Shown: positions 3,478 through 27,518, numbered from the stretch's first letter. The stretch is DNA of 32,000 bases from Candidatus Saccharimonadota bacterium (GCA_965227835.1 OZ245768.1:990001-1022000); one strand, 5' to 3'. Program-made: numbers and translations. The notes: a model not told the origin generated them from the letters alone.

Positions 3478-3549
3478 AAAAGTAGAATTTTTAGAAATTT
3501 TTGAAAGATTATATTTTTTATTCAAAATTGATTGAAAGCAAAGAAAATC

Positions 3550-3695
3550 AAGTTTAAAGTTGTTACATATTTCACAATTTTGTTTTGAATATCATACTAT
3601 GTATATTCTATCTTCCCTTTTTTCTAATTCTTATCTTTTGATTTCTCAGTTTTTTGTTTGATATTCAATTCATACTTCTTCCAGAGTTTTTAAAC
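3550..3695 (-). pseudogene. Terminal remnant of a toxin junction segment (third, truncated cassette)
   Basis: The minus strand reads TLEEVGIEYQTKNGEIKR*, then ...LEKREDRIYIVGYSKQNCEICNNFK.... This is homologous to 8209-8370, 13101-13262 and (at protein level) 20383-20545. It carries an in-frame TAA and loses homology near 3550. Confidence 0.5.
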
Positions 3696-3698
3696 TCT

Positions 3699-4271
3699 TT
3701 ATTTTTCAAATATAAATCTAGGATTTCTTTGTAAATCTAATAGAATTTCTTGTTGTTCTTTTGGGAGATTTTTTAATTCATTTAATGAATAAAAATTCAT
3801 TGTATCTTGTGTCAAAATTCAAAATTGTTTTAGATCTTCAAAGGTTTCGGGGGTGTTAATATACTTTTCTCAAAATATACTATAAATAGTAGGGTAGTCT
3901 TTTCATCTATGTAATTTATTATAATCAATATTAATATAGTATTCACTATACATATATATGTATATATATATCCCTTTCTCAATTATTCATCTTAATTCAA
4001 AATTAAGACATTTCCTATTATTTACATTGCAAAGAGTGTTTATCTCCCAAGTATCTCCTCAAAATACTGGTCATGATGTTTGTTTTCCTATATGATATTT
4101 TCATATTTTTGAATACAAAGTTTCTATATACATATTATTTTCTAATTCCTCATAATACATATCTTCTTGAAAAGATATATAATGATATCAAATAAAGGCC
4201 AATAGAAAAAAAGACAATATTATACCTACAAGTAATTTCTCCTTAAAATAAGTTAATCTGTTTTTATGCAT
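3699..4271 (-). CDS. Hypothetical single-pass membrane protein (190 aa), cassette A; paralog of 8974..9588
   Basis: ATG at 4271. Starts MHKNRLTYFKEKLLVGIILSFFLLAFIGYHY (N-terminal TM helix) and ends ...TPETFEDLKQFGILTQDTMNFYSLNELKNLPKEQQEILLDLQRNPRFIFEK*. Length is a multiple of 3. The C-terminus is conserved with the paralog and the N-terminus and middle are divergent. Confidence 0.55.
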
Positions 4272-4282
4272 AGATTTTTTTA

Positions 4283-4918
4283 TTAATAAATTTTATATAA
4301 AATCTTTGATTTCCAATTATATATTTTTCATAATCATTTATCTTGATAATAACTAGCCCAAGAATTAAGAATATTTACTTGAAATCATCTATCATAAGTT
4401 GGAACAAAATCATAAATATCACTTATTTCCATATATAAATAAAATCCGTCCCCATAATGAATAGTACCGAAGTTCCATTCAATTTTTCAAAAACTATACT
4501 TAAAATCTTTATTTCTTGTATCATCATTAGTATCTTTTATTATATACATGTCTTCTTTGTGTTCTTGACCATCATAATTAGAGCTTTTATCTATTTCATA
4601 TTTTCATCACATTTCTAAATTTATATATTCTTCTTTTTTTGAAATTGCTTGTTCTAATTTTTCTTGAAACCAACTAGTCTTTTTCACTTCTTCAGTTATC
4701 CAATGGTTGTTTCAATATAATTTATCAGTTCAGTCTCAATGCATAAATTCTTCTAACATATGGGAAGATATTTTGTATCATAAAAGTGGTCAATAAAGCC
4801 ATATAGCATTTAATATCAATCATACTGATGTATCTTCTACTTCTCTCCAATATTTATTTCAAGCTATTTTTATATCTCAACTATCATTAGCTAATCAAAT
4901 ATTATTATTATAAATTTT
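4283..4918 (-). CDS. Hypothetical protein, stop-to-stop open frame with no ATG near its 5' end; paralog of 9592..10206
   Basis: Reads KIYNNNIGLANDSGDIKIAGNKYWREV...HGDGTDKLYGNNHWITEEVKKTSWF...YDFVPTYDRGFQVNILNSWASYYQDKGLGKIYNWKSKILYKIY*. The first ~21 codons are identical to the paralog and the rest is divergent. The initiation codon is unresolved. Confidence 0.4.
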
Positions 4919-5178: not shown

Positions 5179-5796
5179 GTAAATATCTACCAGTAGAACT
5201 GGTAGCTTTAAATGGAAGCCCCTAGAAGGGGCTAAAATAGTTTTTACCAGTTTAAATCTAACTGATTTCCATCAATGGTTTTATCCTTATGTTGCTGATG
5301 TTGAACATAATTTTTTATCATATCCAAGTCAAGTCAAACTGTACTTACATAGTATCATCTACTCCAGAAATTCTTCGAGTACAGTCATTTCTTCTTACTA
5401 TGTTTGTTATGAAGTATTATTGCACTCTTTCATTTCAATCTTCACAGAATTTCTGCAACAGAGTATTTTGGAGATATCCTCAAAACGAGATGAACATGAT
5501 CTATCGTTATATTTCATTTTAATATCTCAAAATCATATCTCTTTGCAAGTTCATGAAATGTGTCTCGTATATCTTTTCTAACTGATTGAAAAAGTATTTT
5601 TTTTCGGTACTTTGGTACCACCACTATGTGGTAAGTGCAGTCCCAATTCACATGGGACTGCTTTGCGTATTTGTGGGACATATCTTTAAAAAGTTATTCC
5701 CCTCCTAGGTGCTTCCTAGAAGATTATACACAACTACCGGAACGGTAAAACCTCCACTACTCGCACCAGCAGAGCTGGTGGTTTAGTGTTGGATTA
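5179..5796 (-). mobile_element. IS200/IS605-family insertion sequence (618 bp)
   Basis: It is absent from the otherwise identical copy, where the empty site is atgattca|attatc at 10688/10689. There is no target-site duplication. Subterminal hairpins are present: agcccctagaaggggct (~5217-5233), ccagtagaactgg (~5190-5202) and caccagcagagctggtg (~5765-5781). It encodes a Y1 transposase. Confidence 0.85.
5244..5681 (-). CDS. tnpA: IS200-type Y1 (HUH) transposase TnpA, 145 aa
   Basis: Reads MSHKYAKQSHVNWDCTYHIVVVPKYRKKILFQSVRKDIRDTFHELAKRYDFEILKGNITIDHVHLVLRISPKYSVAEILGRLKGKSAIIL...FWSRGYYVSTVGLDLDMIKNYVQHQ.... It has the HxH and RGYY motifs. Four TGA codons fall on conserved Gly positions. Track ORF 5289..5522(+) is its antisense shadow. 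Confidence 0.9.
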
Positions 5797-5969
5797 ATTA
5801 TCTTTCTATAGTCTATGATGTTATTTGAATATTCAGCTTCTTTTGGAAAGTTATATAAATCTGATAATCTTAATACGCTATATAGTTTTCAGTCTTCAGA
5901 TTTATATAGATATCTTTGAACCCATATATTGTGTATTGAAAAAAACAAATCAAATTCAAATTCTGATAA

Positions 5970-6228
5970 TTAGAAACTCATACTTTCTTTGATTTTTTCT
6001 CACTTTTCATTCAACTTATAATCCGTAATATCAATCTTCTCTCCTTTTTTAATATTATAATTCTTATATTCTTCTAGTATACTATTTCTTTTATTTTCAT
6101 ATTCTTCTTTTAGATCATATAGTTCTTTTTTTATTCTTTTTCTTTTTCATCGTATTTTTTCCATTTCCGTATCAATTTGACTTGACTCAAAGATTCTGTG
6201 TATCTCGTTGAGTTTATTTGTATTGTTT
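5970..6228 (-). pseudogene. Nested remnant of a toxin linker plus a short alternative C-terminus (copy A)
   Basis: Reads NSTRYTESLSQVKLIRKWKKYDEKEKE*KKELYDLKEEYENKRNSILEEYKNYNIKKGEKIDITDYKLNEKGEKIKESMSF*. The first half is near-identical DNA to the linker inside 7101..8384 (INSTGYTEFLSQVKLIRKWKKYDEKEKELKKELYDLKEEY), with a TTA>TAA nonsense change. Confidence 0.45.
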
Positions 6229-7095
6229 ATATATATCTTCAGTCTCTTTTTCCCATTTCTCTATTCAATCTCTCCGGTCTCTTAACATCTCATAAAAATT
6301 ATCAAAATCTATCTTTATATCTTCTTTGTATAATCATATTACCCATATAAAATCTAAATGTTTCTTTGAAACTTTAAATCTTATCATACCTATATAAAAT
6401 TCAACTACATTTTTATCTCATTCTTTTACATCCTCTAATAATGAAATTATTTCTTGTATGTATAATAGGGATATGTCTTTCATATTTGTTACTATTTCAC
6501 AATAAAAACCTGTATGTGGATCCATTATATAACTGTCATTCTGCATACTATGAGATTTAAAGCCTAAATCTGGTTTTTGATTTTCATAATGAACTATTGC
6601 ATAGTCAATATGAAATATTTCAGGGGGTATCCATATATCTCCATCATATGATTCATTATATATAGATCTCTTACAAAAAGGTCATCCTTTTGTCTTTCAT
6701 GTCTCTTTTTCCCAAGCGTCTATATAGTCACTCCAATCTCTCATCATATGTAAAATATCTTCTATTTTTAAGTCTGTTACTATATAATCATCTGCATAAT
6801 TGTATGTAATAGTTACCTCAGAGTTAGGGTACTTTTCTCCATAATATCATTTTCATTTTTGATAACACCAAATTAATGTAGTTTCAAATCAAAATATAAA
6901 CTTCTCTCTCCTTCATTGACTCACTTCTTCAAGTTTACTTACTATCTCTCGAATGTCATATGATCATAGCTGGTTTAGTTCTGTATTTAATAAATAGGGA
7001 TCGTTACTTTCTTTCTCTTTTCAAATTCAATCTACCTTAATTTGAATAAATGGATTAACATTTGTTACAAAATAGTATTCAATTTTATTTAACAT
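6214..7095 (-). CDS. Putative cognate immunity protein of the EndoU-like orphan toxin (copy A, 293 aa)
   Basis: ATG at 7095, 5 nt after the toxin stop. Starts MLNKIEYYFVTNVNPFIQIKVDGIGKEK and ends ...DFDNFYEMLRDRRDGIEKWEKETEDIYKQYK*. No signal peptide. The immunity role is inferred from position only. Confidence 0.55.
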
Positions 7096-7100
7096 AATTT

Positions 7101-8384
7101 TTAATCAATAATAGGATAAAAAGTTCTTAATTCTTTTGTTCTCTCTATATATACAAACTCAATATTTATTCCATCAACTGTTGATGGTCACTTAAATATA
7201 TTTAAACCTAGTCAGGTAGCATTTGGGTCTGCTAATCCCTTATTATTTTCTATTGCATAAGTTACTTCATCTATAATCTTTTGCTTACTCCAGCTATCTG
7301 GGAAAAACGAAGAATTTCATACAGGTTTTCATCATTTTTTTGTTAAAGTATTATTATTTCCATAATCTATAACTACTTTTGCACTGTAAGGTTCATTCCA
7401 AGTATCAATTGATTTGTCTATATCTTCTAATTTAGCTACTCATTGTTGATTACTTTTGTTATAATGAGTTATTGCCTTTTGAGAATGAACTCAGTTGAAA
7501 GTTCAGTCTGACTTAAACTTAATCTCTACAATATGATCTATCTTTCATTCTACTTTCTTCCTTACATCTTTCACATATTTTACTCATTTGAATGATTTTT
7601 GTATAAGTGATTGTTCTCTTACTTTCTTCAAAAAATTCTCCAAACTCAATTTATCTTTCAATCTAACTATATCTTCTATATCGTCTAGCTTATATTCCTT
7701 AGCAACCTCTTTTGCTACTTCAAATATCTCTTCAATCTTCATTCATAGCTCTTTTCATAATTTCTCTAGAGATTTATTTAATAATTCTCTTGCTCATGAT
7801 CAACTTCATGCACCACTTGCTAATCATATTATTGTTAGAGTCTTTCAGAGTGTTCATAATTCATCACCTGTTATTGGATCTTTTCAGATAACTAGTGTTA
7901 ATATATCATATCACTCTCATACAATTGGGATTAGTGATACTATTATACTTGTTGTATTTCAATATTCTTCTTTTAGATCATATAGTTCTTTTTTTAATTC
8001 TTTTTCTTTCTCATCGTATTTTTTCCATTTCCGTATAAGTTTGACTTGACTCAAAAATTCTGTGTATCCTGTTGAGTTTATTTGTATTGTTTCTTGTTTT
8101 GTTGGTTGTTCTTTTGTTTTTGATTCAATGTTTGCTATGGATGTATTATCATATCTTGCTATTAATCTTTCTTTGTAATAGGTGATTTTGTTATTTCTTT
8201 TTATGTAGGGTTTAAAATTATTACATATTTCACAATTTTGTTTTGAATATCATACTATATATATTCCATCTTCCCTTTTTTCTAGTTTTTGTCTTTTAAT
8301 TTCTCAGTTTTTTGTTTGGTATTCAACTCACACTTCTTCCAGGGTTTCTGGGTCTGTGTTTATTTTGAATTTAAACTGGATTTT
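7101..8384 (-). CDS. Orphan toxin module A: junction segment, PT-TG-like domain and EndoU-like nuclease; no start codon
   Basis: A stop-to-stop frame of 427 codons. Junction segment: ...NTDPETLEEVGVEYQTKNGEIKRQKLEKREDGIYIVGYSKQNCEICNNFKPY.... Pre-toxin TG-like: ...SLIPIVGEGYDILTLVIGKDPITGDELGTLGKTLTIIGLASGAGSGSG.... Bacterial EndoU pattern: ...DHIVEIKFKSDGTFNGVHS...SSFFPDSWSKQKIIDEVTYAIENNKG...GPSTVDGINIEFVYIERTKELRTFYPIID*. The first in-frame ATG lies deep inside. Confidence 0.7.
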
Positions 8385-8776
8385 TTATAATCAAAATATC
8401 TTTTCATATAAAAAAATAATATTAGTGTGTGAATAATTGTTAATCAAATATAATAATAAAAATAATAATATGTTGTTGTATTTGGATGGTAGTTTAAATC
8501 AGACCAAACATCACTTATCAATAAAAAATAAAATATGTAATTAAAATATAAAGATATTTTAATTAAATATTTTTTATAAAAATATGTAATTAAAATATAA
8601 ACTATAAATACTATGGTAGTTTTTATTAATAGTGAAAATTCCATCATATCATATGATCTATAATAACTATAATCATTATCAAAATTATGCATTAACATAA
8701 GTATATAATAAATATTTAAACATAAATAACATATATATATAGAAATATTTAATATAATCTTTACAATTTTATTCAT
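8360..8776 (-). CDS. Hypothetical multi-pass membrane protein (138 aa)
   Basis: Track ORF 8444..8776 extends through TGA to TAA 8360-8362. Starts MNKIVKIILNISIYICYLCLNIYYILML and ends ...YYYIGLTIIHTLILFFYMKRYFDYKKSSLNSK*. Very hydrophobic and Tyr-rich. It occurs only between cassettes B and A. Confidence 0.5.
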
Positions 8777-8984
8777 ATATTTTATTTAATATATAATTAT
8801 AATTTTTAAAATATTTATAATATCCGCTTACTCTTTTTCAATATTTGATAGCTTTTTCGTCACATTCTCATCATTTTTTTACACAAGAAGGTCACCCATT
8901 CCAAGCTTTTCATATATTTTCTGCCGTTATTTCTTTTCACTCTTCTAATATTTTTCCCTTTATTACATTGATCCTATAATTCAT
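8769..8984 (-). CDS. Small hypothetical protein (71 aa)
   Basis: ATG at 8984. Reads MNYRINVIKGKILEEGKEITAENIGKAWNGGPSCVKKGGECDEKAIKYGKRVSGYYKYFKNYNYILNKIYE*. It overlaps both neighbours by a few nt and has no recognisable family. Confidence 0.35.
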
Positions 8985-9588
8985 TATCTTCAAATATAAA
9001 TCTAGGACTTTTTTTTAAATCTAATAGAATTTCTTGTTGTTCTTTTGGGAGATTTTTTAATTCATTTAGTGAATAAAAATTCATTATATCTTGTGTCAAA
9101 ATTCAAAATTGTTTTAGGTCTTCAAAGGTTTCGGGAGTGTTATATTTTTTTCACATAATATAATAAAATCAAGCATAGTAGATTCTTGAATTTTTAGACA
9201 TAGAAAAAAATTCTTCTCATACTGAAATTGTATTATAATCTAAATTGAAATAATATTCATCATATATATATATATATATATAATCTCCTTTATTAAAGGC
9301 TCATTTTAAATGCCAAGATAAGCACTTTCTATTTTCAGAGTTACATATAGAGTTATAACGTTCAACAGGATCAAGTCAAAATCATGGAATAATTCTTTCT
9401 CATATATGATATTTTCATATTTTTGAATATAATGTATCTATGTACATATTCTTTTCTAATTCTCGGTAATATTGTTCATCTTTATGTGATATATAATAAT
9501 ATCAAGCCAATAAAAATAAGGAAAATAAACATATTAATATTACAAATAATCTATTTAGCATTAAAGTAATTTTATTTATATCAAACAT
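8974..9588 (-). CDS. Hypothetical single-pass membrane protein (204 aa), cassette B; paralog of 3699..4271
   Basis: ATG at 9588. Starts MFDINKITLMLNRLFVILICLFSLFLLAGYYY (TM helix), continues ...GDYIYIYIYDEYYF... and ends ...TPETFEDLKQFGILTQDIMNFYSLNELKNLPKEQQEILLDLKKSPRFIFEDNEL*. Length is a multiple of 3. Confidence 0.55.
9262..9282. repeat. (AT)10 microsatellite inside a coding region
   Basis: A 21-nt perfect AT/TA run that encodes YIYIYIY in 8974..9588. The paralogous site at about 3950-3975 has an interrupted version. Confidence 0.8.
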
Positions 9589-9591
9589 ATT

Positions 9592-10206
9592 TTAATAAAT
9601 TTTTTCTAAAATTTCTAAATTCCAAAAATATGTTTTTCAATATCATATTTCTTCATAATAGCTTCACCATGAATTTAAAATATCTTTTAATAATCATTTA
9701 TATCATTGATTAGGACTATATGTAGGTATAAAATCATATTTATCTGTGATAAAAATTTTCATATAAACTCAACTATCATCAACAACTGGTTCCATAGTCC
9801 AAGTAACATGTCAAAATGAAAAATATAAGTCCCAATTTCTAGTAGAGTTTTCTGAGTCCTCAATTAAAACTCATTTTTCTATTTCATCTCAATTAAAGGA
9901 ATTATTTTTATAGAAATTTTCAAACTCTTGTTCTCTAATATTATACCAACTAGTTTTCTTAACTTCTTTTGTAATCCAGTGATAATTTCAATATTCTAAC
10001 TTACTACCATCTCAATATATGAACTTTGCAAGCATAGCTGACGATATTTTTAAATTCAATCATTTTCAAGCTATTCATACCAAATTTAACATTATGGTAG
10101 CTGAAACTTTTTTATGTGACTGGTCTAAATAATACCAATAACTATTTCAAGCTATTTTTATATCTCAACTATCATTAGCTAATCAAATATTATTATTATA
10201 AATTTT
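9592..10206 (-). CDS. Hypothetical protein, open frame with no ATG near its 5' end; paralog of 4283..4918
   Basis: Reads KIYNNNIGLANDSGDIKIAGNSYWYYLDQSHKK...YGDGSKLEYGNYHWITKEVKKTSWYN...YDFIPTYSPNQGYKGLLKDILNSWGSYYEEIGYGKTYFWNLEILEKIY*. The stop lies 3 nt before the next ATG. Confidence 0.4.
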
Positions 10207-10338
10207 TTAGATTGTTACTATTTATCTAGCTTAAAGATATACTCAAAAATAGCTAGAATGAATATCATAAATGTAAAATAAAAGAAATTAACATGAAATA
10301 TACATATCCATAAATAATTCCCATGTAAATAATAAAAA

Positions 10339-10554
10339 CTTAAATCTACCCAGTTTTTTGTATTTTATAGTTTATTTTTTACCTTTATATAAGTAAAAAC
10401 AGAGATTTTATATTGATTGAATTTTATAAAGATAAAGTTAGCTTAAATAAGTCATTTATAAAATACTAAAGATAAAACACTAAAAATAGCTTAATTTCCC
10501 TTTATTTAAAGTAAAATATAGGTATACTTTTTATAAAAAGTGGGTAGTTTTGAG
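10339..10554. mobile_element. MITE-like non-autonomous insertion (216 bp)
   Basis: It is absent from the identical copy, where the empty site is aataataaaaatatgatt at ~5041-5058. Imperfect terminal inverted repeats are cttaaatctaccca and tgggtagttttgag. It is flanked by a direct taaaaa at 10333-10338 and 10555-10560. It contains no ORF. Confidence 0.6.
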
Positions 10555-10594
10555 TAAAAATATGATTAATTTTCTAATTTTCATTTTAAAGTAA

Positions 10595-10861
10595 TTATTT
10601 AATTAGCTCCTTTATTTCTATAGTAAAATTATAAGTTTCTCCATCCAATTCAGTTTCATGGTAATATCACATTGAATTTAATGATTCAATTATCTTTCTA
10701 TAGTCTATGATGTTATTTGAATATTCAGCTTCTTTTGGAAAGTTATATAAATCTGATAATCTTAATACGCTATATAGTTTTCAGTCTTCAGATTTATATA
10801 GATATCTTTGAACCCATATATTGTGTATTGAAAAAAACAAATCAAATTCAAATTCTGATAA
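10595..10861 (-). CDS. Small open frame (about 88 codons, no ATG; possible TTG start); intact only in cassette B
   Basis: Reads ...FFSIHNIWVQRYLYKSEDGKLYSVLRLSDLYNFPKEAEYSNNIIDYRKIIESLNSMGYYHETELDGETYNFTIEIKELIK*. The cassette A copy is split by the IS200 insertion between ...RKII and ESL.... It is in frame with the upstream remnant, separated by a single TAA. Confidence 0.3.
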
Positions 10862-11120
10862 TTAGAAACTCATACTTTCTTTGATTTTTTCTCACTTTTC
10901 ATTCAACTTATAATCCGTAATATCAATCTTCTCTCCTTTTTTAATATTATAATTCTTATATTCTTCTAGTATACTATTTCTTTTATTTTCATATTCTTCT
11001 TTTAGATCATATAGTTCTTTTTTTATTCTTTTTCTTTTTCATCGTATTTTTTCCATTTCCGTATCAATTTGACTTGACTCAAAGATTCTGTGTATCTCGT
11101 TGAGTTTATTTGTATTGTTT
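10862..11120 (-). pseudogene. Nested toxin-linker remnant (copy B)
   Basis: Identical to 5970..6228 at an offset of 4892, including the same internal TAA. Confidence 0.45.
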
Positions 11121-11987
11121 ATATATATCTTCAGTCTCTTTTTCCCATTTCTCTATTCAATCTCTCCGGTCTCTTAACATCTCATAAAAATTATCAAAAT
11201 CTATCTTTATATCTTCTTTGTATAATCATATTACCCATATAAAATCTAAATGTTTCTTTGAAACTTTAAATCTTATCATACCTATATAAAATTCAACTAC
11301 ATTTTTATCTCATTCTTTTACATCCTCTAATAATGAAATTATTTCTTGTATGTATAATAGGGATATGTCTTTCATATTTGTTACTATTTCACAATAAAAA
11401 CCTGTATGTGGATCCATTATATAACTGTCATTCTGCATACTATGAGATTTAAAGCCTAAATCTGGTTTTTGATTTTCATAATGAACTATTGCATAGTCAA
11501 TATGAAATATTTCAGGGGGTATCCATATATCTCCATCATATGATTCATTATATATAGATCTCTTACAAAAAGGTCATCCTTTTGTCTTTCATGTCTCTTT
11601 TTCCCAAGCGTCTATATAGTCACTCCAATCTCTCATCATATGTAAAATATCTTCTATTTTTAAGTCTGTTACTATATAATCATCTGCATAATTGTATGTA
11701 ATAGTTACCTCAGAGTTAGGGTACTTTTCTCCATAATATCATTTTCATTTTTGATAACACCAAATTAATGTAGTTTCAAATCAAAATATAAACTTCTCTC
11801 TCCTTCATTGACTCACTTCTTCAAGTTTACTTACTATCTCTCGAATGTCATATGATCATAGCTGGTTTAGTTCTGTATTTAATAAATAGGGATCGTTACT
11901 TTCTTTCTCTTTTCAAATTCAATCTACCTTAATTTGAATAAATGGATTAACATTTGTTACAAAATAGTATTCAATTTTATTTAACAT
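11106..11987 (-). CDS. Putative cognate immunity protein of the EndoU-like orphan toxin (copy B)
   Basis: Same sequence as 6214..7095 at an offset of 4892. ATG lies 5 nt after the toxin stop. Confidence 0.55.
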
Positions 11988-11992
11988 AATTT

Positions 11993-13960: not shown

Positions 13961-14017
13961 TTAAGTTCCAAAATTACTTAATGTTTATACCCAGCTTCTC
14001 TCACTTGTGTATCACTA

Positions 14018-14554: not shown

Positions 14555-14566
14555 ATTAAAATATTT

Positions 14567-17315: not shown

Positions 17316-17479
17316 AACACATATTATTGTTTAGGTAATATAAATTTTACTTCTTTTACCTTTCCAAATTCTCACTTATTGTTTGTCTTCAACAAATCCA
17401 TAGTAACTTCATGTCTATACCCAGCTTCTCTCACCTGCTTATCACTACTGTGAAAATCTCTCAAGGTTATTCATTGATT

Positions 17480-18049: not shown

Positions 18050-18205
18050 ATTAAAATATTTCTATTTAGGTAATAAAAATTTTATCTCACTAGGTCAATC
18101 TATTCATCATTCTTTCAATAAATCCATAGTAACTTCATGTCTATACCCAGCTTCTCTCACCTGCTTATCACTACTGTGAAAATCTCTCAAGGTTATTCAT
18201 TGATT

Positions 18206-18757: not shown

Positions 18758-18934
18758 AATTCTATTTGTTAGGAAGTAAAAATTTCACCTCCTTTTCAAT
18801 TGGTTTTAACTCTCACTTATTGTTTGTCTTCAACAAATCCATAGTAACTTCATGCTTAAACCCAGCTTCTCTCATTTGTGTATCACTACTGTGAAAATCT
18901 CTCAAGGTTATTCATTCTTTTCAGTTTCGTTTTT

Positions 18935-19411
18935 TTAACGATCCCATTCATTTTCATATAAAGTAAATAATACTCAACACATCTCAAAACTCTCTCTCTC
19001 TCTAGTATCATCAAAAGAAAGCCATTCTCTCTTTATATCCTCTATAGCTTGCTTTGATTCTTCTTGTGTATATTCTTTTGATTTTACTAATTTATATTCT
19101 TTTAAATTTTCTCAATCTTTTTCTAATTCATGATATAATATTTTTATTTTCAATTTTCCATCTCTGAGTAAAGGATAGAGATAGTCTAGGGTAATGTCTA
19201 GTTGTTGTTCTCTATTGTCTTTAATCTTTTCCCTTTCTTCATCTGTTATATTTTCTCACCAAAATTCATTAAGTCATATTGAATATTTATTATAGTATAA
19301 CCTATATACAGTAACAATGATTCTGTCTTTATCTGTGAATCAAGAACATACACCATGAAAATCTTTTATTCACTTTTTTTCTAAAAATTCATTCAATTCA
19401 TTATTTATCAT
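18935..19411 (-). CDS. Array paralog 8 (158 aa), immediately downstream of the full-length toxin
   Basis: ATG at 19411, 4 nt after the toxin stop. Starts MINNELNEFLEKKGIKDFHGVCSGF (N-type c), short middle. (CT)7 at 18990-19003 puts the 3' end in the third frame, ending ...RERESFEMCGVLFTLYENEWDR*. Confidence 0.6.
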
Positions 19412-19415: not shown

Positions 19416-22400
19416 CTATTTGTTAGGAAGTAAAAATTTCACCTCCTTTTCAATTGGTTTTAACTCTCAATTATTGTTTGTCTTCAACAAATCTATAGTA
19501 ACTTCATGCTTAAACCCAGCATCTCTCACTTGTGTATCACTACTATGAAAATCTCTCAAAGTTATTCATTCTTTTCAATCTGGAGATGTATACCTATAAA
19601 CACTTCATTTATTTGATGGCTTTTTTTCTCACTTCCACCCCTTAGTTTCTAAACTTTTCATTACACCTTCAACTCCTTCCTTATCTCACAATACCTTCAC
19701 TGCTCATCATTCTAATCATTTAACCTTATCTAATCAATCGACCTTTTCTAAATCCTGAGCCACTTTTAATATATCATCAACTCAAGTTATATCCTTAAAT
19801 TTACTTGCTATAAATCAAGACCTTCATGTAGACCTTACCCTCTTCACAACCCTCTCACTACTCTTAGCTCATTTCAGTTTTCCGGGTCATACAAACATCA
19901 AACTAGAACTCACTCATACATATCATTCTATCCATTGTATATTATAGGATGTAAGATATTCTTTATAACCCTCATACTCATTATATACTTCCTCTATTTG
20001 ATTATATAATTCTCATAATCATTCTTTCGCTTTCTCCCAATCTTCTTCTGCTGTTCTTTCTCAAGTTATATATCCATATAGTATTTTTCAGCTTCATTTT
20101 AACAAATTTATTATATCTTTTGGGGTATCTTGTAATTCTTCTATCGTGTCTTTTATTGCTTCTTTACTTCAATCTATATATCATTGATTATCTGTTTTTA
20201 TTTCTCTTATCTTCTTTTTTATATTATAGAATTTTTCTTTTGTTTCTTCTACATATTCTTGTACTCAGCTTATTTCTAGGTTTTCTTCTTTGTTTTTAGT
20301 ATTTGTAGTTCTTATTCTATTATCTGCAAATGAGAGGTATGTATTGGTGTTATAGTATGTTGTAGTATTGTTTGTGTCTATGAAGTATGGTTGAAATTCG
20401 TTGTAACAGTTTATACATATTTCTTTGTCTAATCAGAGTATATATATTCAGTCTTCTTCTTTTTCTAGTTTTTCTCTTACATGATTTCAATTTTCTCATT
20501 TGTATTGTATTCATATTTCTTTTAGGGTTTCTGGGTTTCAAGTTATTTCAAAGTATAGGCTTGATAGTCAATCAATACTTGTATTTGATGAATATTGGAG
20601 GTTAGTGAATTTTGAGGTTTGAGGTTCTTCTCAGTTACTTTCATTTCACTCTTTTTCATTATCTTCTATTTCTTCTTCATTATTCTCATCTCATTTCTCC
20701 TCCTCTCCTTCTCACTTATCTTCTCATCATAACACTCTCAATAACACACTTTCCTTATTTCATTCCCTATCTTCCATTCATATTATAACTTCTCATACTT
20801 CTATAGCCTTTATCTCAATATAGTTTGTTTCAAAATAATTTACTGGATTGCTACTATACTTTTTATATAATAATGCCTTATTATTAGTCTTGGTTAATTG
20901 TATGTGTCAGTTACTTTCATATATTGGAAGTAGATATTTTTCTCAGATTTCTAGTTCTAATTCTTTATCTCTTTGAGAGATTACTAGATTTGTGTCTTTT
21001 ATTTCAACTTCTATTTTTGCTTCTTGTCCGTATTTATCAAATATCTTTGCTTTGGTTTCTCATTTCTTTTTTCCTTTGATTTTTATTTCTCAGTCTTTGT
21101 CTACATCAAAATATATTATTTCTTCGTTGTATTCTCAATTTTTGTATCATCATCATCAGTCTAGTATTTTTCATTGGTATTTCTCATTTTCTTTTAATAC
21201 TACTTTGTTTTCTTTTAATTTTATTTTGGGGGTTTTGTCTTTTATCTTTACTTTGACTATGCTTATTATATCTCAACTTTGATATATATATAGTTCTGTT
21301 TCTCATTTGGTTTTTCATATTATAGAGAATTTTTCATAATTAGTTCTTTTCCCGTTTTCCCATATTCTTTGTTTACTTATTTGTATTATTTCCGGATTTG
21401 TTGTTGAGAATGTATAGTCTTTATTTATTTCTTGTTTGAATGATTCGCATGTTATTCATATTGGTACTTCGCATTCATATGTTCTTGGGGGTTTAGGTTT
21501 TATTGTTATTTCTAGTATGTGGCTTATGTAGTCTCAATCATAGGATTTTACATATATATTTGAAGTTCAGCTTAGTTTTCATTCTAGTTTTATTTTATTT
21601 TTTGTTCAGTTTATTTCTATTATGTTGGGTCTTGAATTGTTATAATAGTATCATCTGTTTTCTATTTTAAATAAGCAACTTTTTCATACTTCTGTTTCAC
21701 ATTTGTGTATTCTTGGGTTTGGAACTGGTTTTACTTTTACATTCCATATTTTCCTTAGTCATTTTCAACTTTTGTATATCTTTATTTTTGTTGTTCAGGC
21801 TTTTTTTCAGCATATTCAGTTTATTTTTTCCGTTTCTCAAGCTACTCTTTTTTTTATTCACCATTCAACACTAGCTATACCACTATTATCTGGCTTAAAG
21901 TTATAATCATCTCTATACCATGTTTTTATACAATCTGTTTCATTTAGGGTAAAATTTTCCTCACTTGCTTTGGATATTATTTTTATTTCATATCTTGGCC
22001 ATTTCCTTCAATCTTTTTCATTTATGTATATTGTTGATTCTCAAATTTTATCAGGATCTATATACACTGTATCCTTTCATACTCTAAGTCTGTAATCAAA
22101 TAATCATAAATTATCTGATTTTATGTCATAGTTGTCTACATTTTCTGGTAATATTAATTTTTGGGTGGCTCATACCTCCATTTCTATTTTGTATTTTTTA
22201 AATGGGGGTTTAGGTATTATTGTTATTTTATAGGTCTTTTTATTTCTTCATAAGGAATCTTTTACATAAATTTCTGTTTCTCATCATACTTGTCATCTTA
22301 TGTATGTTTTTTTATCATGAGGTCTTCTTTTTATACTAGTAAAATGGTTATTACTGGTTATTTTGTGTCAAGGTGAAATATATTCTAGTATTTCATCTCA

Positions 22401-25400
22401 TTGATAAATTGTTCTTGTTTCTATTTCTGGAGGATCTGTTATTATATTTATATCTAATATGTGCCTGACTACTCAATCACCACCTGATAAGTAATATTTT
22501 ATCTTTCAAAATAGGTTTCATCTAAATTTCATTACTTTAAAATAATGATTGTATTCAAGTTTAGACATTGATTTTACACTATGTTCTCACTCAACTGAAT
22601 AGCTGTAATATGTGTTACCTATTCAATATATATTTATATATGTTCATTCTTTTATGTTTAGAGTATGGATTTTTGGTTCTGGTAAGGGTATTATTTTTAC
22701 TTTATGATTAGCAACATGATATCACCTAGTTTTCACATATAATTCTAATTCTCAATCCTTTTTTCATGTAATACAATAACCTTTTTCATATATTTCTAAT
22801 TCAGCTAATTCTTCATTATTCGTGGAATATTCAGTTTCTATTCATACTTCTATACATTTCCTCTTTGAATTATATACCTCAAATACTTTTTCTTCTATTT
22901 TTGGATGCACCATTATATCTATAGTATATAGATGTATATTTTGATCATATACTCTATATCTTACTTTTCAGGGGGTTTTTCATAAAAGTTTTATATCCCA
23001 ATTTTTTTGATGTGTTTCTATTTCTCAACCATCTAGCCTGTCATAATAAAATTTAAGATCCCTTCAATTAGTTTTAACTACTAAATCAGAGTATTCTCAT
23101 TGTTTAATATTTAAATCATATTGTATTACCTCAGGGGCTGGTTTTATTATTAGTTTAATTATATATTTATTTGATACTCTTATATATGCTGTTCATATTT
23201 CTTTTGCTCTTATTGTGAAATCGCGATATCCCTTAGATAAATCTACCAAACTATTACTCGATATAGAGTAATTTTCGCTGTAAGCTTTTTTTAGGTATCT
23301 TTTGTATGCTTGTCATTTATAAATTTCTATTTCAAATGTAGGTGGAGGAGTTATGGTAAGCTTTAATATATATTGTAAATATCAATTTTTATCTGATACT
23401 TTAATATTTACAGTTCAAACTTTTTTTGCACTTAAAATATATTGATCCTCTCTAGTTCAAATACTTATTATATCATTATTAGATACTTCATATTTATGGT
23501 TTCGAGCATTTTTTAGATTTACTATTGAATTCTTTCATTCTTGTAATGAAATATTTTTAATTTCTACAGGTTTTATGTTTAACTTTAGAGTATATATATG
23601 TATATTTTGTCTATTTTTAATTTTTACATACAAAGTTCCAACTTTTTTTGTAAGTAAATGATAATAGTCACCTCCTTTAGAAAAACTAGCTAAGCTCCTA
23701 TCCGATAATTCATATCTATATATCCAAGTAGCCGGTAATTTCTCAGAGTGTTTTTTTCAAACATTGATGCTTCTATCAAAAACAGGAATTCATTTTATAC
23801 TAAGACTGACTTTATGATCTGTATGGCTACGACGAGGATCTGTTATTTTTATAGTAACATTTCAAGCTTTTCTAGCATATATACGAAATGACCTTCTTAT
23901 TTTTTTTATTTCTACTAAACTAGGATTTGATACTTGAATTCTTTTGTATGAATGAACAAAATAATAATTTCAAACTGTTATACTTTTATATTTAGTAGGA
24001 AGGTATCTATTTATACTAATTCAATCTGTTTGCTCTTCTTGAAATGTTTCAGGTTCTATAATTAATTCCTCTCATAAATCATCGTTTTCTTCTAACATAT
24101 CTCCATTTTCTTCTTTTATTTTTTCATTTTCTTCAAACTCTTTTATGTATAATTCTTTTTCTTGATTTTTATCTTCTAGATTATCTTCTCAAAGACTGTT
24201 TATTTCTATATTTCATGTTTCATCATTTAAAAAACTATTTTTCTCTATTTCTTCTAACTCTTCTTGACTTATAATTCATGGTTTTATTTCTTCTACTTCA
24301 TTTCGTTTCATTAATTCTTCTAGCTCTTCTTCACTTAATTCTAACTCATAGTTACTCTTAGAACCATCAGAAAAATTATTTATTTCAAGTCAGCCATCCT
24401 CGTAATTTTCTATAATTTCTATTTCTTCTTTTTTTATCTCTCATATTTCTGAATTGTTATTTTTAAGATAATCTAGCATTTCTTTTTCTTCTTCACTGCT
24501 CAATTTTTCTTCGTCTTGATTATCTTTTTCATTTATTTTTTCAAATTTGAGGAACTCTATACTACTTTTTTCATCATTTCAAATATTTTCATCTAAATTA
24601 TTTATTTTTATTCAATTTTCCTCTTCTATAATCAACTCCTTATCATAAAAGTCATTTATTCTCTCTAGTTTTACTTCTTTGTTTTCTAGCTTTTCTCATA
24701 ATTCTAAACCTCATGAAAAACCATTTATAATCTCATTTGGATTATAATTTTTTACTTCTAACTCTTGGAAGTTTTCTTCTGTGTATAAACCATTATTTTC
24801 TCAAGTATTATTTATCTCTAGTCATTTTTCTGCTCAATCTATATACAATTCTTTTGTATGTTTCAATTCATCTATTTTTTCTTCTATTTCAATTTCCACA
24901 TTTTTAAATCATTCTAAACCTAGTTCTTCTTCATTTATTTCTAGTTTTTCTTCCTTTTTTCATAGCTCATATTCTTCTAAAAACAAATCTTTAAGATCTT
25001 GTTTTTGATTATTATTTATTTCTACTCATTTCTCTGCTCAATCTATATACAATTCTTGCATTTTATTTTCAAGCTCAGGAGAATTTTCTAAAAAAGTTTT
25101 TTCTTCTATTTCTTCATTCTCATAAAAATCTTGAGATATATCTTTATAGTTAAAATCCTTTCACACAGGTATTCAGTGCGTTATTTTTTCACTATTTAAT
25201 TCAGTATTTCAAATATCATTTATTTCTATATTTTTTATTTCTACATTTTCATCAAAATACCTGTCTCAAAAAATACCATCAAATTTCTTTGATTCTTCTT
25301 TTATTAGTTCTAATTTTTCTAATTCTCCATATGTAAATATAGATTTATTTTCTTTGTAATTTTGATTTATTTCTAAATTTTCCTTAGAGTTTAAAAAATT

Positions 25401-27518
25401 TAGTAAAATTGGATTTAGTTTTGTATTTTCAGATTCTTGTGTAGCTTCATTTTCTTCTATTTTTTGTTCTGTATCTTCTTTTTTTTCTTCAAGAAATTTA
25501 CTACTTTCTATTAACTCTATTTTTTCAACTATTAAAGCATCATCTTTATTTTCCTGTAAATTATCTCCTTTTCCTTCCTCTATCTTCCCTTCTTCCACTT
25601 TTTCTTCAGTCTCTTGTTCTTGCTTAATTTCATCACTAATTTCTTCCTTATCTTCTTCTTTTTTAATTTCATTTTCTTTACCTTTATTCTCCTCTAATTC
25701 ACTTTTCTTTTCTTCTATTCCATTTTCAACTGTTTCTTCACTTTCAACTTTCAACTTTTCCCTTTCAACTAAGCTTAATTCTAGTGAAGATATTATTTGA
25801 TTTAAGCTGGCAAATTTGGAAATTGGTTTATTTGACTCTGTTATAATACTTGTAGAATTTTCTTGCAATATTTGCCTAGCTTGTTTTGTTGTAAGATTTG
25901 GTTTGTAGCTTTTTATTATTGATATTAATCATACTATATGAGGAGTAGCCATGCTTGTTCAGCTTAATCTCCTATAGTTTCATTTATTTGTTGGGAATGT
26001 TGAATATATTGATACTCATGGAGCATTTATATCTACTTTGTCTCAATAATTTGAGAAACTTGCTCTGGTATTACTTTCATCTATTGCTGCTACTGATATT
26101 GTTTCCTCGCATCATCATGGAATATAGTTTCTTGTATCAGTATTTCAGTTTCAACTAGCTGATACAATTATTTTTCAGTTTCTAGTTGCTGATTTTATTC
26201 AATCACATATTGGATTACTGTTAGGATTTCATCTTCATCAAAGACTCATATTTACTATATCTATATCATTTTCTTTTATATATTCTAGTGCCTTTATTAC
26301 TGCATAATTTGGACAAAATCAATTCTTATCACATATTTTTAGTGGAATTATTTTACTGTAGGGATTTATTCAAAGTATTCATTTTCAATCTAATTTTGAT
26401 GATATTGTTCAAGCTATATGAGTTCAGTGTCATTGGTCATCCTGAGTGTCTTTTTCTGGATTTATAAAATTTTGTCATTTTAGAACCTGTCATTTTAGAT
26501 CTGGGTGATTTGAATCTATTCAAGTATCTATTATGGCTATTTTTATTTTTTTATTATTTTGTTTTTGATAAATTTCTGTTTGTTTTTCTAGTTTTAAAAG
26601 GTAGTTTATAGGATTATATTTTCTTATACCCCATGTTTTTTCCAAATTTTCCAAACCTAGTTTATTTTGAATTTCTTTATTTCTTTTTAAAAATTCTTCA
26701 TCTTTTTCTAACACTCTTCATATATCCTTCTCTCCTTTAAGGAGAGGGGCTAGGGGTGAGGTCTCCTCAGATTGAGTCGGGAGTGATGATTGTTCAGACT
26801 TGGACGAACTTTGGTTTATAGAATATATTTCTGGTTTTACTATTTTTATATTTAAAAAATTTTCTGGAATTTTTCATATTTCTATTTGTCATAATATCTC
26901 TTCTACAAATATTCAACTTTCTGGTAGTGTTATCTCATAATATTTTTGTTTTCAATTATTATAAAGGTAATTTATCTTGGTTTTTTCTTCGAATTTTTCA
27001 AAAATATTTTTTACATGATTTTTATTTTTGTTTGTTTCTACTATAAGTGTATAGTTTTTTTCTTGCTTTAGCGAATTTTTCAGTGTATCATAAGCTTGTT
27101 TTTTCTTTCTTAGACTTGGTGCTATATCCTCATCTATTCAGCTTGATAATTTAGTATCTTTACTAAGACTTGATACAGCTTTTAAAACAACTTTCTTTCT
27201 TGTATCTTGGGCTATTTTATTGATGTTTTTTGTACTTTTTTCTTTCTGTATTTGTTCTTGAGCTTCCTCTAAAGTCTCTTTTATTTCTTCTTTTTTTTCT
27301 TCTAGTTTTTCTTGCAACTCTTCATCTTTTATTACATCTTCCATTTTATCAGTTGCTTTTTCTAAGACTTTTTCTACTTTTTCTAGAAATTTTTCTGTTT
27401 TTTGCCTAGTTTGCTCTATTTGAGCTTTTTCTGATTGAACAGATGCATAAATTATTTGTATGTTGGTATTTCATAAAAGAAATACCAATAAAAGAAGTTT
27501 GCATATTGTTTTTTGCAT
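19416..27518 (-). CDS. Giant secreted polymorphic-toxin protein (2700 aa): signal peptide, S8 subtilisin-like protease, acidic repeats, about 13 Ig-like repeats, PT-TG-like linker, HicA-like C-terminal domain
   Basis: ATG at 27518 gives MQKTICKLLLLVFLLGNTNIQIIYASVQ. With TGA=Gly one frame runs to TAG 19416-19418 (8103 nt, a multiple of 3). Track ORFs 27138..27344, 26520..26714 and 25266..25868 all lie in this frame. I checked the frame at six internal anchor points. I saw no in-frame TAA or TAG during manual translation. Confidence 0.8.
19419..19668 (-). other. C-terminal toxin domain with a HicA/YcfA-like pattern
   Basis: Reads GVMKSLETKGWKGEKKPSNKGSVYRYTSPDGKEGITLRDFHSSDTQVRDAGFKHEVTIDLLKTNNNGELKPIEKEVKFLLPNK*. 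Compare the HicA pattern L..L...GW......GSH..Y.HP.G...T.P.H......GT...I...AGL. The canonical GSH His is Val here. The 19600-19900 stretch looks more G+C-rich than its surroundings. Confidence 0.35.
20830..24010 (-). repeat. About 13 tandem Ig-like (Big_2-type) repeats of about 85-95 aa within the giant CDS
   Basis: A recurring pattern of the type ...G.(T/V).(I/L)Y(V/I)K......Y.(I/L).(I/V).(I/V).P.P.... Examples are KGETELYIYQSGDIISIVKVKIKDKTP, VGTLYVKIKNRQNIHIYTLKLNIKP and GTSNIYVKSYDGDYISHILEITIKPKPP. Confidence 0.55.
24010..25800 (-). repeat. Acidic E/K-rich low-complexity region with reiterated ...G..(E/K)IN(N/S)... modules
   Basis: Examples are ELYIDGAEKGVEINNNQ, ELYIDGAEKGLEINNTGENNG, ENGIKINNLDENIGN, EDGGLEINNFSDGS, ETGNIEINSLGEDN and DIGNTELNSEK, embedded in Glu/Lys-rich spacers. 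Confidence 0.5.
25808..26591 (-). other. Peptidase S8 (subtilisin-like) domain of the giant CDS
   Basis: Catalytic triad motifs are KIAIIDTGIDSNHPDL (Asp codon 26526-26528), DDQGHGTHIAGTI (His codon 26427-26429) and LSGTSMATPHIVG (Ser codon 25953-25955). There is also VSASGNGN. Several of the motif Gly residues are TGA. Confidence 0.85.

Follow-up and report, generated by a model that had tools for sequence, protein, structure and literature searches.

A ~24-kb island in the 32,000-nucleotide stretch of DNA analysed here (the window) is very probably a Sec-dependent polymorphic toxin locus of a bacterium of the Gracilibacteria/Absconditabacteria type, which uses genetic code 25. A sequence-only reading had placed a toxin island with orphan cassettes and a remnant at 3480-27518, and both its extent and this central interpretation held: profile searches support the latter, and four related loci do so more strongly. 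Every called gene from 3552 to 27518 lies on the minus strand. The immunity and toxicity roles discussed below are suggested by the context of the proteins within the locus.

Genetic code

As had been proposed, TGA encodes glycine in the window, i.e. code 25. Open-frame capacity, counting ORFs of 100 aa or more on either strand, rose from 5.2 kb to 39 kb once TGA was taken as a sense codon. TGA codes for invariant glycines of the Walker A motif (GPSGSGKST) and the ABC signature (LSGGEKQR), and also for those of the subtilisin motifs DTG, HGTH and SGTSMATP. The Peptidase_S8 score was 178.6 bits with TGA read as Gly versus 100.5 bits with TGA read as Trp, and TGA accounts for 157 of the main toxin gene's 195 Gly codons. 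Database records of these genes read UGA as Trp or as stop. Because the database entries are translated with TGA as Trp, a homology search with the C-terminal 610 residues of the main protein gave no match; this is an annotation trap that has concealed such proteins from routine homology searching. A promoter and terminator scan, which found 118 elements against 127 expected and hence no enrichment, was uninformative because the DNA is AT-rich. The Rfam and tRNA scans were both empty.

Architecture of the main toxin

19416-27518, minus: main toxin gene, an ORF of 2,700 aa in code 25 (ATG at 27518, stop at 19416-19418)
25854-26552, minus: Peptidase_S8 domain, aa 323-555 (Pfam, 2.2e-52)
24009-25721, minus: acidic Glu/Lys-rich region, aa ~600-1170, with recurring short G.EINN motifs (sequence and motif scan)
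20727-23984, minus: 14 tandem β-sandwich repeats of ~75-80 aa each, aa 1179-2264 (Pfam T2SS-T3SS_pil_N, 2.2e-14)
20319-20570, minus: junction domain, aa ~2317-2400, 5' boundary of the exchangeable C-terminal module
19674-20318, minus: helical pre-toxin region, aa ~2400-2615
19419-19673, minus: terminal ~85-aa candidate toxin domain

The largest gene encodes the secreted-type protein that had been described, with a signal-peptide-like N-terminus, MQKTICKLLLLVFLLGNTNIQIIYA (read by eye). The subtilisin domain predicted there was recovered by the Pfam profile, and a motif scan found its catalytic triad motifs intact (DTG at aa 331, HGTH at aa 364 and GTSMA at aa 520), suggesting that this peptidase, carried in cis, releases or processes the toxin. 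The repeats had been called Ig-like; they are indeed β-sandwich repeats, but their Pfam match is to T2SS-T3SS_pil_N, not to Big_2. An iterated repeat HMM delimited 14 domains with E values from 1e-9 to 7e-24.

The junction domain follows the pattern ..EVG.QY..G..R..LEK.EDGIYI.G..K..C..C.N.F.PY..YY and is conserved in the first orphan module, in a remnant at the island edge and in the related loci L002 and L003; the second orphan module, a 98.8% copy of the first, was left out of this alignment. The helical region behind it is homologous to the pre-toxin/PT-TG region of the orphans (27% identity, E 4e-26, tblastn). The terminal domain, conserved at 34% in the related locus L004, had no family above threshold (DUF7028 reached 23-25.5 bits against a cutoff of 27), and a PDB sequence search with it gave no match. 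NCBIfam added nothing for proteins without an assigned family. An earlier suggestion that this domain resembles HicA was rejected, since the Pfam model HicA_toxin (PF07927) gave no match to it at E <= 10 and its histidines are not conserved in L004. With the same model the L002 variant reached 13 bits (E 0.099), whereas the control, E. coli HicA, scored 30.9 bits. For a home-made profile, phmmer did not connect the HicA structures to each other.

The paralogue array

18935-19411, minus: paralogue 1, N-terminal type c, (AG)7; candidate cognate immunity protein
18206-18757, 17480-18049 and 16758-17315, minus: paralogues 2-4
16097-16588, 15370-15975, 14567-15235 and 14018-14554, minus: paralogues 5-8 (2-8 together within 14018-18757)
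18765-18926, 18068-18202, 17327-17476 and 16596-16754, minus: silent toxin 3'-end copies 1-4, complete
15994-16137, 15243-15410 and 14573-14716, minus: silent toxin 3'-end copies 5-7, complete
13942-14055, minus: silent toxin 3'-end copy 8, truncated

Eight tandem paralogues follow the main gene as described, the first ATG (19411) lying 4 nt past its stop. Their designation as an eight-gene immunity array stands for the number of paralogues but not for their condition: only paralogue 1 keeps the family-consensus C-terminus, and paralogues 2-8 are all frameshifted at an (AG)n tract, six at (AG)5 and one, which is fused to the next tail, at (AG)6. Because of this shift, seven of the eight have no family-conserved C-terminal helix and strand, so the array may have largely decayed and may not be a functional set of several immunity genes. 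In an AF2 model of paralogue 1 built from a deeper alignment (pLDDT 93, pTM 0.85), the family C-terminus that it alone retains is predicted to be structurally integral; an earlier model from 11 close paralogues (pLDDT 47) was discarded. A Foldseek search of the paralogue 1 model against the PDB gave no match (best E 0.44, TM 0.21). Because the fold resembles nothing solved, an immunity role is argued from position and co-variation only.

The array is laid out as three homology blocks and two variable regions in units of 650-730 nt, all sharing one paralogue-to-tail join. Paralogues 2-8 are mosaics of four N-terminal and two middle types. After every paralogue stands a copy of the toxin 3' end (8 copies, 13942-18926), namely of the tail formed by the last 54 codons of the terminal domain (19419-19580). 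All seven complete silent tails remain open over 44-51 codons, retain conserved residues and contain no stop or frameshift. In all 11 complete tail-to-paralogue units of two genomes (window and L002), the hypervariable loop of the toxin co-varies with the N-terminus of the next paralogue, and all 11 pairs fall into four types; these are neighbouring stretches of DNA, and linkage alone could be the cause. The paralogue family comprises 29 clusters among 1.84 billion representatives (14 at E <= 1e-10), and all 16 clusters that were retrieved and read came from TGA-recoded genomes.

Orphan modules and remnants

11993-13960, minus: orphan module 1, start-less; two β-sandwich repeats, linker, junction, PT-TG (12692-12850) and EndoU (12002-12433)
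11106-11987, minus: p326, 293 aa from its ATG, which lies 5 nt past the EndoU stop; candidate EndoU immunity protein
10595-11152, minus: p97/p89, start-less remnant; pre-toxin helix and p205-related domain, one in-frame TAA
8974-10206, minus: variable pair of p205 (9592-10206, start-less) and p206 (8974-9588, N-terminal TM segment)
8360-9014, minus: p82 (8769-9014), remnant of a third C-terminal type, and p142 (8360-8776), its multi-TM partner; homology to L003
7101-8384, minus: orphan module 2, start-less; junction, PT-TG and EndoU, further truncated upstream
6214-7095, minus: second p326 copy, same protein sequence as the first (copy A)
5179-5791, minus: IS200-type insertion with TnpA at 5244-5681 (Y1_Tnp 9.4e-35, terminal hairpins)
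3699-4918, minus: p212 (4283-4918) and p198 (3699-4271), diverged alleles of p205/p206
3552-3691, minus: junction remnant, LEKREDRIYIVGYSKQNCEICNNF, at the island edge

The module at 11993-13960 is start-less, as had been stated, with no ATG before codon 168. It repeats the β-sandwich region of the main gene (13401-13935 versus 20722-21256, 98.3% identical over 535 nt), and its junction is 73% identical to that of the main gene. The PT-TG and EndoU-like domains that had been recognised in the orphans both exceeded the Pfam gathering cutoffs (PT-TG 7e-9; EndoU_bacteria, PF14436, 9e-14, 52.3 bits against a cutoff of 25.3). The window EndoU, like that of L003, contains the two-His motif GKIDHI...GVHS, whose histidines are catalytic in EndoU enzymes generally and may be so here; a PDB sequence search with the domain gave no match.

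The claim that 7101-8384 is a further-truncated second copy of this module was borne out, because 5792-8375 is 98.8% identical to 10683-13267 over 2585 nt. Like the first, the second orphan ORF has no ATG near its beginning. The two orphan proteins share 96.7% aa identity, and all 30 differences fall inside the toxin ORF. An IS200-type element splits the second p97/p89 copy and is not present in copy A, where the p97/p89 pre-toxin helix has 69% aa identity to that of the orphan. The ~4.9-kb repeat holds the cassette pairs p205/p206, p212/p198 and p82/p142. Near-identical flanks bound the p205/p206 pair, whose members may have toxin and immunity roles and are 44% (p205 to p212) and 59% (p206 to p198) identical in aa to their alleles. 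In addition, p82 is 65% identical to the end of the L003 main protein, and p142 is 38% identical to the gene after it. We also considered a lytic transglycosylase for the L003/p82 end, on the motifs E-S, GLGQI and AWNGGP, but the resemblance stays at the level of motifs, with no Pfam or PDB support. At the island edge, the third junction fragment that had been noted next to the ABC operon was found as a 140-nt remnant, 91-94% identical to both orphan junctions, beside an ABC permease gene that ends at 3477. Such identities (91-99% over 140-2585 nt) greatly exceed what chance would give.

Related loci in other genomes

A comparison of related genomes for swapped C-termini had been suggested. 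Four independent code-25 relatives were found (L002, L003, L004 and L010), and relatives are few: GTDB representative genomes searched with the whole protein gave only a generic S8 match (Yoonia), and two scans of JGI metagenomes, using the C-terminal module in the first and a paralogue profile in the second, gave no match. L002 has the same end as the window on a scaffold merely 27-43% identical in aa, with 85-100% nt identity from the junction to the end. At the junction, nt identity jumps from <=0.45 to 0.87-1.0 and stays high through to the tail, and the GC content of L002 drops over the shared module (~0.37 to ~0.27). The toxin end that L002 expresses is a tail type that is silent in the window. 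The L003 main protein has the window junction followed by a different C-terminus, and an EndoU orphan elsewhere in that locus is followed by a p326 homologue (58% identity). L004 has the terminal domain (34% identical, 2e-24), then, after 6 nt, a 40%-identical paralogue and its own orphan. In L010, whose lineage is only ~35% identical, the order is paralogue, tail remnant, paralogue. The S8 domain lies inside the toxin protein in L002 and L004 as well.

One junction precedes at least three ends that differ from each other, namely those of the main proteins of the window and of L003 and that of the EndoU orphans. The paralogue family stands beside the toxin end in the window, L002, L004 and L010, EndoU and p326 are neighbours in the window and L003, and orphan ends lie near the main gene also in L002, L003 and L004. 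Collectively, these data show module exchange between genomes with conserved toxin-paralogue and EndoU-p326 neighbourhoods.

Possible origin and use of the array

It is rather unlikely, yet deserves serious thought, that the array is mainly evolutionary debris, in which one segment of toxin 3' end plus immunity gene was duplicated and spread by unequal crossing-over. Only the first paralogue would then work, and the silent tails and shifted paralogues would be neither donors nor extra immunity. The identical paralogue-to-tail join in all units would be explained in this way, as would the same (AG)5 shift in six copies and the (AG)6 in one, each without the family-conserved helix and strand; the IS200 insertion, the in-frame stop and the remnants indicate that decay goes on elsewhere in the island. 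However, the seven complete silent tails have stayed open with their conserved residues, and four diverged loop/N-terminus types have been kept rather than homogenised. Furthermore, L002 uses one of the silent types as its expressed toxin end, and the tail-plus-paralogue unit occurs again in the distant L010 lineage.

We suggest, tentatively and against the odds, that the array is a cassette store that re-specifies the toxin/immunity pair, much as in pilin antigenic variation, by gene conversion and (AG)n switching. Each silent unit would supply an intact hypervariable loop and the matching N-terminus of a partner gene, the flanking homology blocks would permit gene conversion into the expressed position, and the (AG)n tract would put single partner genes in or out of frame. 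If this is true, a genome-reduced epibiont could change which relatives it kills or resists without new DNA.

Proposed function of the locus

For the polymorphic toxin locus as a whole, we propose that the precursor is exported via Sec, and that the acidic region and the 14 repeats would hold the C-terminus off the cell or bind the target. The in-cis S8 domain may free or activate the toxin end, like the separately encoded S8 peptidase of the S8-PTS systems compared below. A neighbouring cell would then be poisoned by the terminal domain or, after a switch, by the EndoU RNase, with the producer and its kin protected by paralogue 1 and p326. Diversification appears to take place at three levels. 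Whole C-terminal modules change places at the junction domain, also between lineages; recombination within the 535-nt identity between orphan 1 and the main gene could put the EndoU end on the scaffold and delete about 7.3 kb; and the hypervariable loop with the N-terminus of the next paralogue is passed on as a single block between homology blocks, so that the silent tail-plus-paralogue units could donate new toxin/immunity pairs.

A surface adhesin or protease used chiefly for host attachment or feeding, with C-terminal domains that act on the host, seems an unlikely description of the giant protein. The code-25 CPR bacteria studied are epibiotic predators whose giant surface proteins have been read as adhesins (PMC8080830); the active-looking protease, the 14 adhesin-type repeats and a type IV pilin-like gene nearby would suit such a role. 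Against this view stand the small cytoplasmic partner gene directly 3' of each toxin end in four loci and the diversified partners and orphan ends, which typify competition between kin or neighbours (PMC3482391). Host-directed and competitive uses are not mutually exclusive.

That the repeats were mis-joined or duplicated in a metagenome-assembled genome is highly improbable: the region is strongly repetitive (650-730-nt units and a 4.9-kb repeat), is known from assembled sequence alone and has its indels in simple tracts, but the copies differ in a structured way (with four N-terminal and two middle types, an IS in just one of the copies, and 30 substitutions between the orphans all in one ORF) and the same architecture recurs in independent assemblies from other samples (L002, L003, L004 and L010).

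In the genome papers on the few code-25 bacteria studied, adhesin is the only role given to giant surface proteins, and polymorphic toxins are not reported. The window and the four related loci point to a scaffold for toxin delivery in such organisms that is specific to the lineage and whose ends can be exchanged. They also provide a partner family without a solved structural relative and evidence that modules have passed between lineages whose base compositions differ greatly. Two candidate pairs, the EndoU end plus p326 and the 85-aa domain plus paralogue 1, could help to decide if the targets of such bacteria are one another or their hosts.

Comparison with known systems

CDI (cdiA-CT/cdiI) and Rhs orphan arrays (Poole et al. 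2011, PMC3150448; Koskiniemi et al. 2014, PMC3967940) likewise have start-less modules of a toxin end and an immunity gene (here a candidate) 3' of the main gene, a conserved upstream piece in each module that is able to recombine with the main gene, and a conserved motif at the boundary of the variable end. Unlike them, the locus has no TPS/FHA, CdiB, RHS/YD or PAAR, and its boundary is a new ~85-aa junction instead of VENN or PxxxxDPxGL. The earlier statement that the usual delivery scaffolds are missing agrees with our Pfam searches of the 2,700-aa protein, which found no CDI family at E <= 0.1 and no match to RHS_repeat/RHS-core, LXG or WXG100; no CdiB-like gene is among the window ORFs, and PT-TG is in the orphans only. 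PT-TG is often found with LXG/WXG100 (T7SS) toxins.

The array can be compared with the esaG and tipC immunity arrays of Firmicutes, which have homology blocks and variable regions (Garrett et al. 2022, PMC9484751), and with the T6SS orphan immunity arrays of V. cholerae (Kirchberger et al. 2017, PMC5361080). Common to all are non-identical immunity-type paralogues in a row after a toxin, and homology blocks between variable regions that lead to paralogue recombination and mosaics. In contrast to those arrays, the units here also carry an intact toxin-end copy (45-50 codons) with a hypervariable loop, and a dinucleotide tract puts most of the paralogues out of frame.

The S8-PTS of Gram-positive bacteria has a separate S8 peptidase gene (Li, Tan & Zhang 2022, PMC9424270), and S8 cleavage activates the S. 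aureus S8-Ntox35 toxin (Mwangi et al. 2026, PMC13556192). An S8 subtilase tied to a secreted polymorphic toxin, with a downstream immunity gene (here a candidate), is common to that system and to ours. The S8-PTS toxin is small, with a signal peptide, BetaH and a toxin domain, whereas the S8 of the window forms residues 323-555 of the toxin protein, which has 2,700 aa and 14 β-sandwich repeats. BetaH was not identified in the main protein with profile libraries that include no BetaH model. The listed S8-PTS toxins include the RNase families BECR and HicA; EndoU is not named in the parts consulted.

The closest class is that of the Sec-type ('T2SS') polymorphic toxins, which have subtilisin among their in-built proteases (Zhang, de Souza, Anantharaman, Iyer & Aravind 2012, PMC3482391). 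Because a signal peptide with an in-built subtilisin is already found there, the window scaffold is unusual rather than unprecedented. The locus and this class have in common a signal peptide, central repeats, a pre-toxin domain, which is PT-TG in the orphans, and a C-terminal toxin that varies, together with an adjoining small partner gene and downstream start-less cassettes. The differences are that the main terminal domain and the partner family are without a Pfam family and that the host uses code 25. The combination of S8 in cis, acidic region, 14 T2SS-T3SS_pil_N-type repeats and junction was not found in the literature searched. The layout of trafficking signal, repeats and candidate toxin (with the main terminal domain unclassified), the exchanged ends and the orphan cassettes are those of a polymorphic toxin system as defined in general terms by Zhang et al. 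2012.

Genetic code and setting of the island

The window has a GC content of ~25%, and ORFs are almost absent from it under table 11. When TGA was read as a sense codon, the ORF capacity of the two strands, counting ORFs of 100 aa or more, rose from 5.2 kb to 39 kb. We found that invariant glycines of the ABC ATPase ('GPSGSGKST' and 'LSGGEKQR') are encoded by TGA, as are those of the subtilase motifs, and that the Peptidase_S8 domain scored 178.6 bits with TGA as Gly versus 100.5 bits with TGA as Trp. These two results show that the source organism uses code 25 (TGA=Gly), like Gracilibacteria and Absconditabacteria. TGA accounts for 157 of the 195 Gly codons in the big gene of the island.

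The public protein collection (entries P0001 and P0003-P0014) stores the window's own proteins, from a 1.49-Mb contig, with TGA=Trp (code 4), placing Trp at ~80% of the glycine positions of the main toxin. Every family member retrieved from this collection was also translated with Trp rather than Gly. This translation explains why the initial homology search returned no matches.

The island is flanked on one side by genes for a GDSL lipase, an ABC ATPase and an FtsX-type permease, and on the other by an Elp3-like radical-SAM/GNAT enzyme gene and a pilin-like gene. The pilin-like protein (30007-31320, plus strand) has a prepilin N-methylation motif, with a weak Pfam match below cutoff, and a Cys-rich C-terminal part in which 'YGGGWTRY' recalls domains of the fibrinogen type. 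A tandem repeat (27762-28038) occupies part of the interval from the Elp3-like gene to the main toxin gene, whose start lies ~250-520 nt downstream of it. The repeat has a 38-nt period and ~6.5 copies, and can also be described as 153 nt x 1.8 copies. It contains short hairpin-like 'AAGGCTAAAGCCTT' cores and could have a regulatory role or form a terminator cluster.

The putative main toxin protein

All elements of the island proposed in the sequence-only reading, namely the main gene, eight paralogues, two orphans and a junction remnant, were found at the coordinates given there. The main gene has the following features.

ATG 27518 to stop 19416-19418, minus strand: main gene, 2700 aa
aa 323-555 of its product: Peptidase_S8 domain (Pfam, 2e-52)
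within its product: T2SS-T3SS_pil_N-type repeats (Pfam, 2e-14)

The triad motifs of the S8 domain (DTG, HGTH and GTSMA) are all intact. With an iterated repeat profile, the β-sandwich repeats were delimited as 14 tandem copies spanning aa 1179-2264. Searching the window with itself by tblastn under code 25 revealed homology between aa 2280-2622 and the orphan junction and pre-toxin region, ending where EndoU begins (27% identity, E 4e-26), so that only the last ~85 aa are private to the main protein. We propose that the precursor would be exported via Sec, that the S8 domain may release the toxin and that the terminal domain would be the toxic part.

This terminal domain matched no family above threshold (DUF7028, 23-25.5 bits against a cutoff of 27) and nothing in a PDB sequence search. 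A suspected relationship to HicA gained no support. The HicA_toxin profile gave 30.9 bits for the control, E. coli HicA (verified as PDB 6HPB), no match for the window domain and only E 0.099 for its variant in L002, one of several independent related loci from other code-25 genomes. Furthermore, a HicA-type mechanism is unsupported because the histidines of the domain are not kept in another such locus, L004 ('RDFHSSD' in the window versus 'RNFGSSD', and 'FKHEVT' versus 'IPGATM').

An array of tail and partner units

The main gene is followed by eight paralogues, the first of which begins 4 nt past its stop, and the last 45-50 codons of the toxin recur after every one of them. This tail reads 'GITLRDFHSSD.QV..AG..HEVT.DLLK', then 5-17 hypervariable residues, then '(E)(I/V)KF(L/I)LP..*'. 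Of the nine tail copies, one belongs to the intact toxin, seven are silent and complete, free of stops and frameshifts, and one is truncated and adjoins orphan 1. Alignment of the eight units resolved three blocks of homology, between which lie two variable regions. V1 runs from the hypervariable loop through the stop codon into the next paralogue, of which it takes in the first ~50 codons, and it occurs in four types; V2 is a middle segment with a short or a long form. All complete tail-to-paralogue pairs in the window and L002 (11/11) follow the same four types. The silent units may thus act as recombination donors, and paralogue 1 would be the gene that protects.

When 1.84 billion representatives were searched exhaustively with HMMER, 29 clusters of this partner family emerged, 14 of them at E <= 1e-10, with members 85-227 aa long. 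The 16 members retrieved and inspected are all rich in Trp, which marks them as coming from TGA-recoded genomes. Every array paralogue carries an (AG)n tract downstream of 'GATACT' (window 14134-19009), with n = 7, 5, 5, 5, 5, 5, 6 and 5 in paralogues 1-8; the reading frame of paralogue 7, with (AG)6, continues into the next tail. An A6/A7 tract at the paralogue gene end is also variable. The tracts of L002, at 9748, 10409 and 11103, are n = 7, n = 6 and an interrupted 14-nt version. The family-consensus C-terminus, '..R(E/D)..FE...V.FTL.ENEW', is obtained only in the frame of the (AG)7 length. It is present in two of the three L002 paralogues, in one of them through the interrupted tract of equal length, and in the window in paralogue 1 only. 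The earlier label of an eight-gene immunity array is therefore too strong.

A model of paralogue 1, built with a deeper family alignment on Trp-for-Gly translations, reached a pLDDT of 93 and a pTM of 0.85, although these translations call for some caution. Searched with Foldseek, it had no solved relative (best E 0.44, TM 0.21). The frame shift falls at residue 139 of the model, and shifted copies are thus predicted to lack the greater part of the final helix as well as the β-strand completing the sheet. The (AG)n tract may switch the frame, and its variation could reflect slipped-strand switching, decay or assembly error.

Orphan modules and downstream cassettes

The start-less modules downstream gave the profile support anticipated for them. 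In orphan 1, an ORF without an early ATG (11993-13960), PT-TG (7e-9) and EndoU_bacteria (9e-14) both passed the Pfam cutoffs. It shares 535 nt with the main gene at 98.3% identity, falling to 73% in the junction, and the ATG of the next gene, p326, lies 5 nt beyond its stop. For orphan 2, 5792-8375 repeats 10683-13267 at 98.8% identity. Two further features belong to this part of the island.

3552-3691: junction remnant, 91-94% identical to both orphan junctions
5179-5791: IS200-type element (Y1_Tnp, 9e-35), hairpins near both ends

Comparison of the two EndoU orphans gave 30 substitutions, of which 15 are synonymous and 15 non-synonymous; every one falls inside the toxin ORF and none in p326 (12316-13259 versus 7424-8367). 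The substitutions cluster at 12492-12695 and 13211-13259, and the 1.6 kb after the copies, with p326 and the small ORF p97, is identical. This patchy divergence fits gene conversion. By its position, p326 is a candidate protective gene.

The fragment p97/p89 is start-less and interrupted by one in-frame TAA. Its first part shares 69% identity with the orphan pre-toxin helix, and its second is related to p205 over the C-terminal half of that protein (30% identity, E 5e-7 in a small search space). The IS200-type element splits its second copy and is absent from the first. The small-ORF pairs p205/p206 and p212/p198 represent diverged alleles, with amino-acid identities of 44% and 59%, that lie between flanks 95-100% identical. 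The DNA upstream of p205 is solely stop-riddled; both may be toxin/immunity pairs.

Related loci and exchange at the junction

L002 comes from a 1.0-Mb genome with a GC of ~0.37. It encodes an S8 protein of 2549 aa and has three tailed paralogues, together with a start-less orphan that opens with a copy of the last repeat and is interrupted by an IS256-type transposase. Its scaffold is only 27-43% identical to that of the window at the protein level. At the junction domain (around window 20600-20430), nucleotide identity rises from <=0.45 to 0.87-1.0. It stays at 0.73-1.0 up to the tail and falls to ~0.5 in the hypervariable loop. The loop of its expressed toxin is the one silent in window units 5 and 7, and the matching paralogue type follows. 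GC over the shared module (8206-11265) is ~0.27, compared with ~0.37 in its flanks and 0.25 in the window. The comparison suggests that a lower-GC relative passed the module to L002's lineage.

At L003 (4.6 kb, GC 0.30), the scaffold protein ends in the same junction domain (32% identity), EGF-like modules and another C-terminus, whose last 57 aa share 65% identity with window p82. After it comes a multi-TM gene 38% identical to window p142. Downstream, a start-less PT-TG and EndoU module (46% identity to the window's) directly precedes a p326 homologue (58%). The alternative C-terminus on the L003 scaffold (3-1394) includes two EGF-like Cys modules (Pfam EGF_MSP1_1, 2.5e-9), and p82 (8769-9014) is a window remnant of the L003-type C-terminus. 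That C-terminal end, with E-S, GLGQI and AWNGGP motifs, is lytic transglycosylase-like in appearance; nothing in Pfam or the PDB backs this identity.

L004, on a 20-kb contig (GC 0.32), encodes a protein of 1939 aa that has a signal peptide and an S8 domain (38% identity, 187.7 bits). Over the pre-toxin and terminal region, this protein shares 34% identity with that of the window (E 2e-24). A member of the paralogue family lies 6 nt on, followed by a start-less copy of its own pre-toxin region. L010 (GC 0.22), from a lineage just ~35% identical, has a 51-aa tail remnant between two paralogues. L003 has another end on the junction, and L002 has the same module on a divergent scaffold. Together, these alignments show module exchange at the junction domain and conserved neighbourhoods of candidate toxins and partners among the loci.

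Comparison with known systems

The anatomy and comparative data agree with the definition of a polymorphic toxin system in Zhang et al. 2012, and the earlier interpretation in these terms was essentially right. Their Sec-dependent architectures already include a signal peptide with an in-built subtilisin (PMC3482391). As had been anticipated, no defining domain of CDI, Rhs or LXG/WXG systems was matched in the main protein by Pfam, so the locus belongs to none of these. Nor is it a strict S8-PTS, since in that system (PMC9424270, PMC13556192) a gene of its own encodes the S8 peptidase and the toxin is a small BetaH protein.

Like the esaG and tipC strings (PMC9484751), the window array has homology blocks and apparent recombination-driven mosaics, and it is similar to the orphan immunity arrays of V. 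cholerae (PMC5361080). The intact toxin-tail copy in each unit and the dinucleotide-tract shifts look like additions to these known arrays. The searchable literature holds no report of polymorphic toxins in Gracilibacteria or Absconditabacteria, and notes one Rhs-type toxin in a Saccharibacterium. Collectively, the locus belongs to a known category of system rather than a new one; with few relatives, its interest lies in its lineage, its new scaffold and partner family, and its cassette-like tail/partner units.
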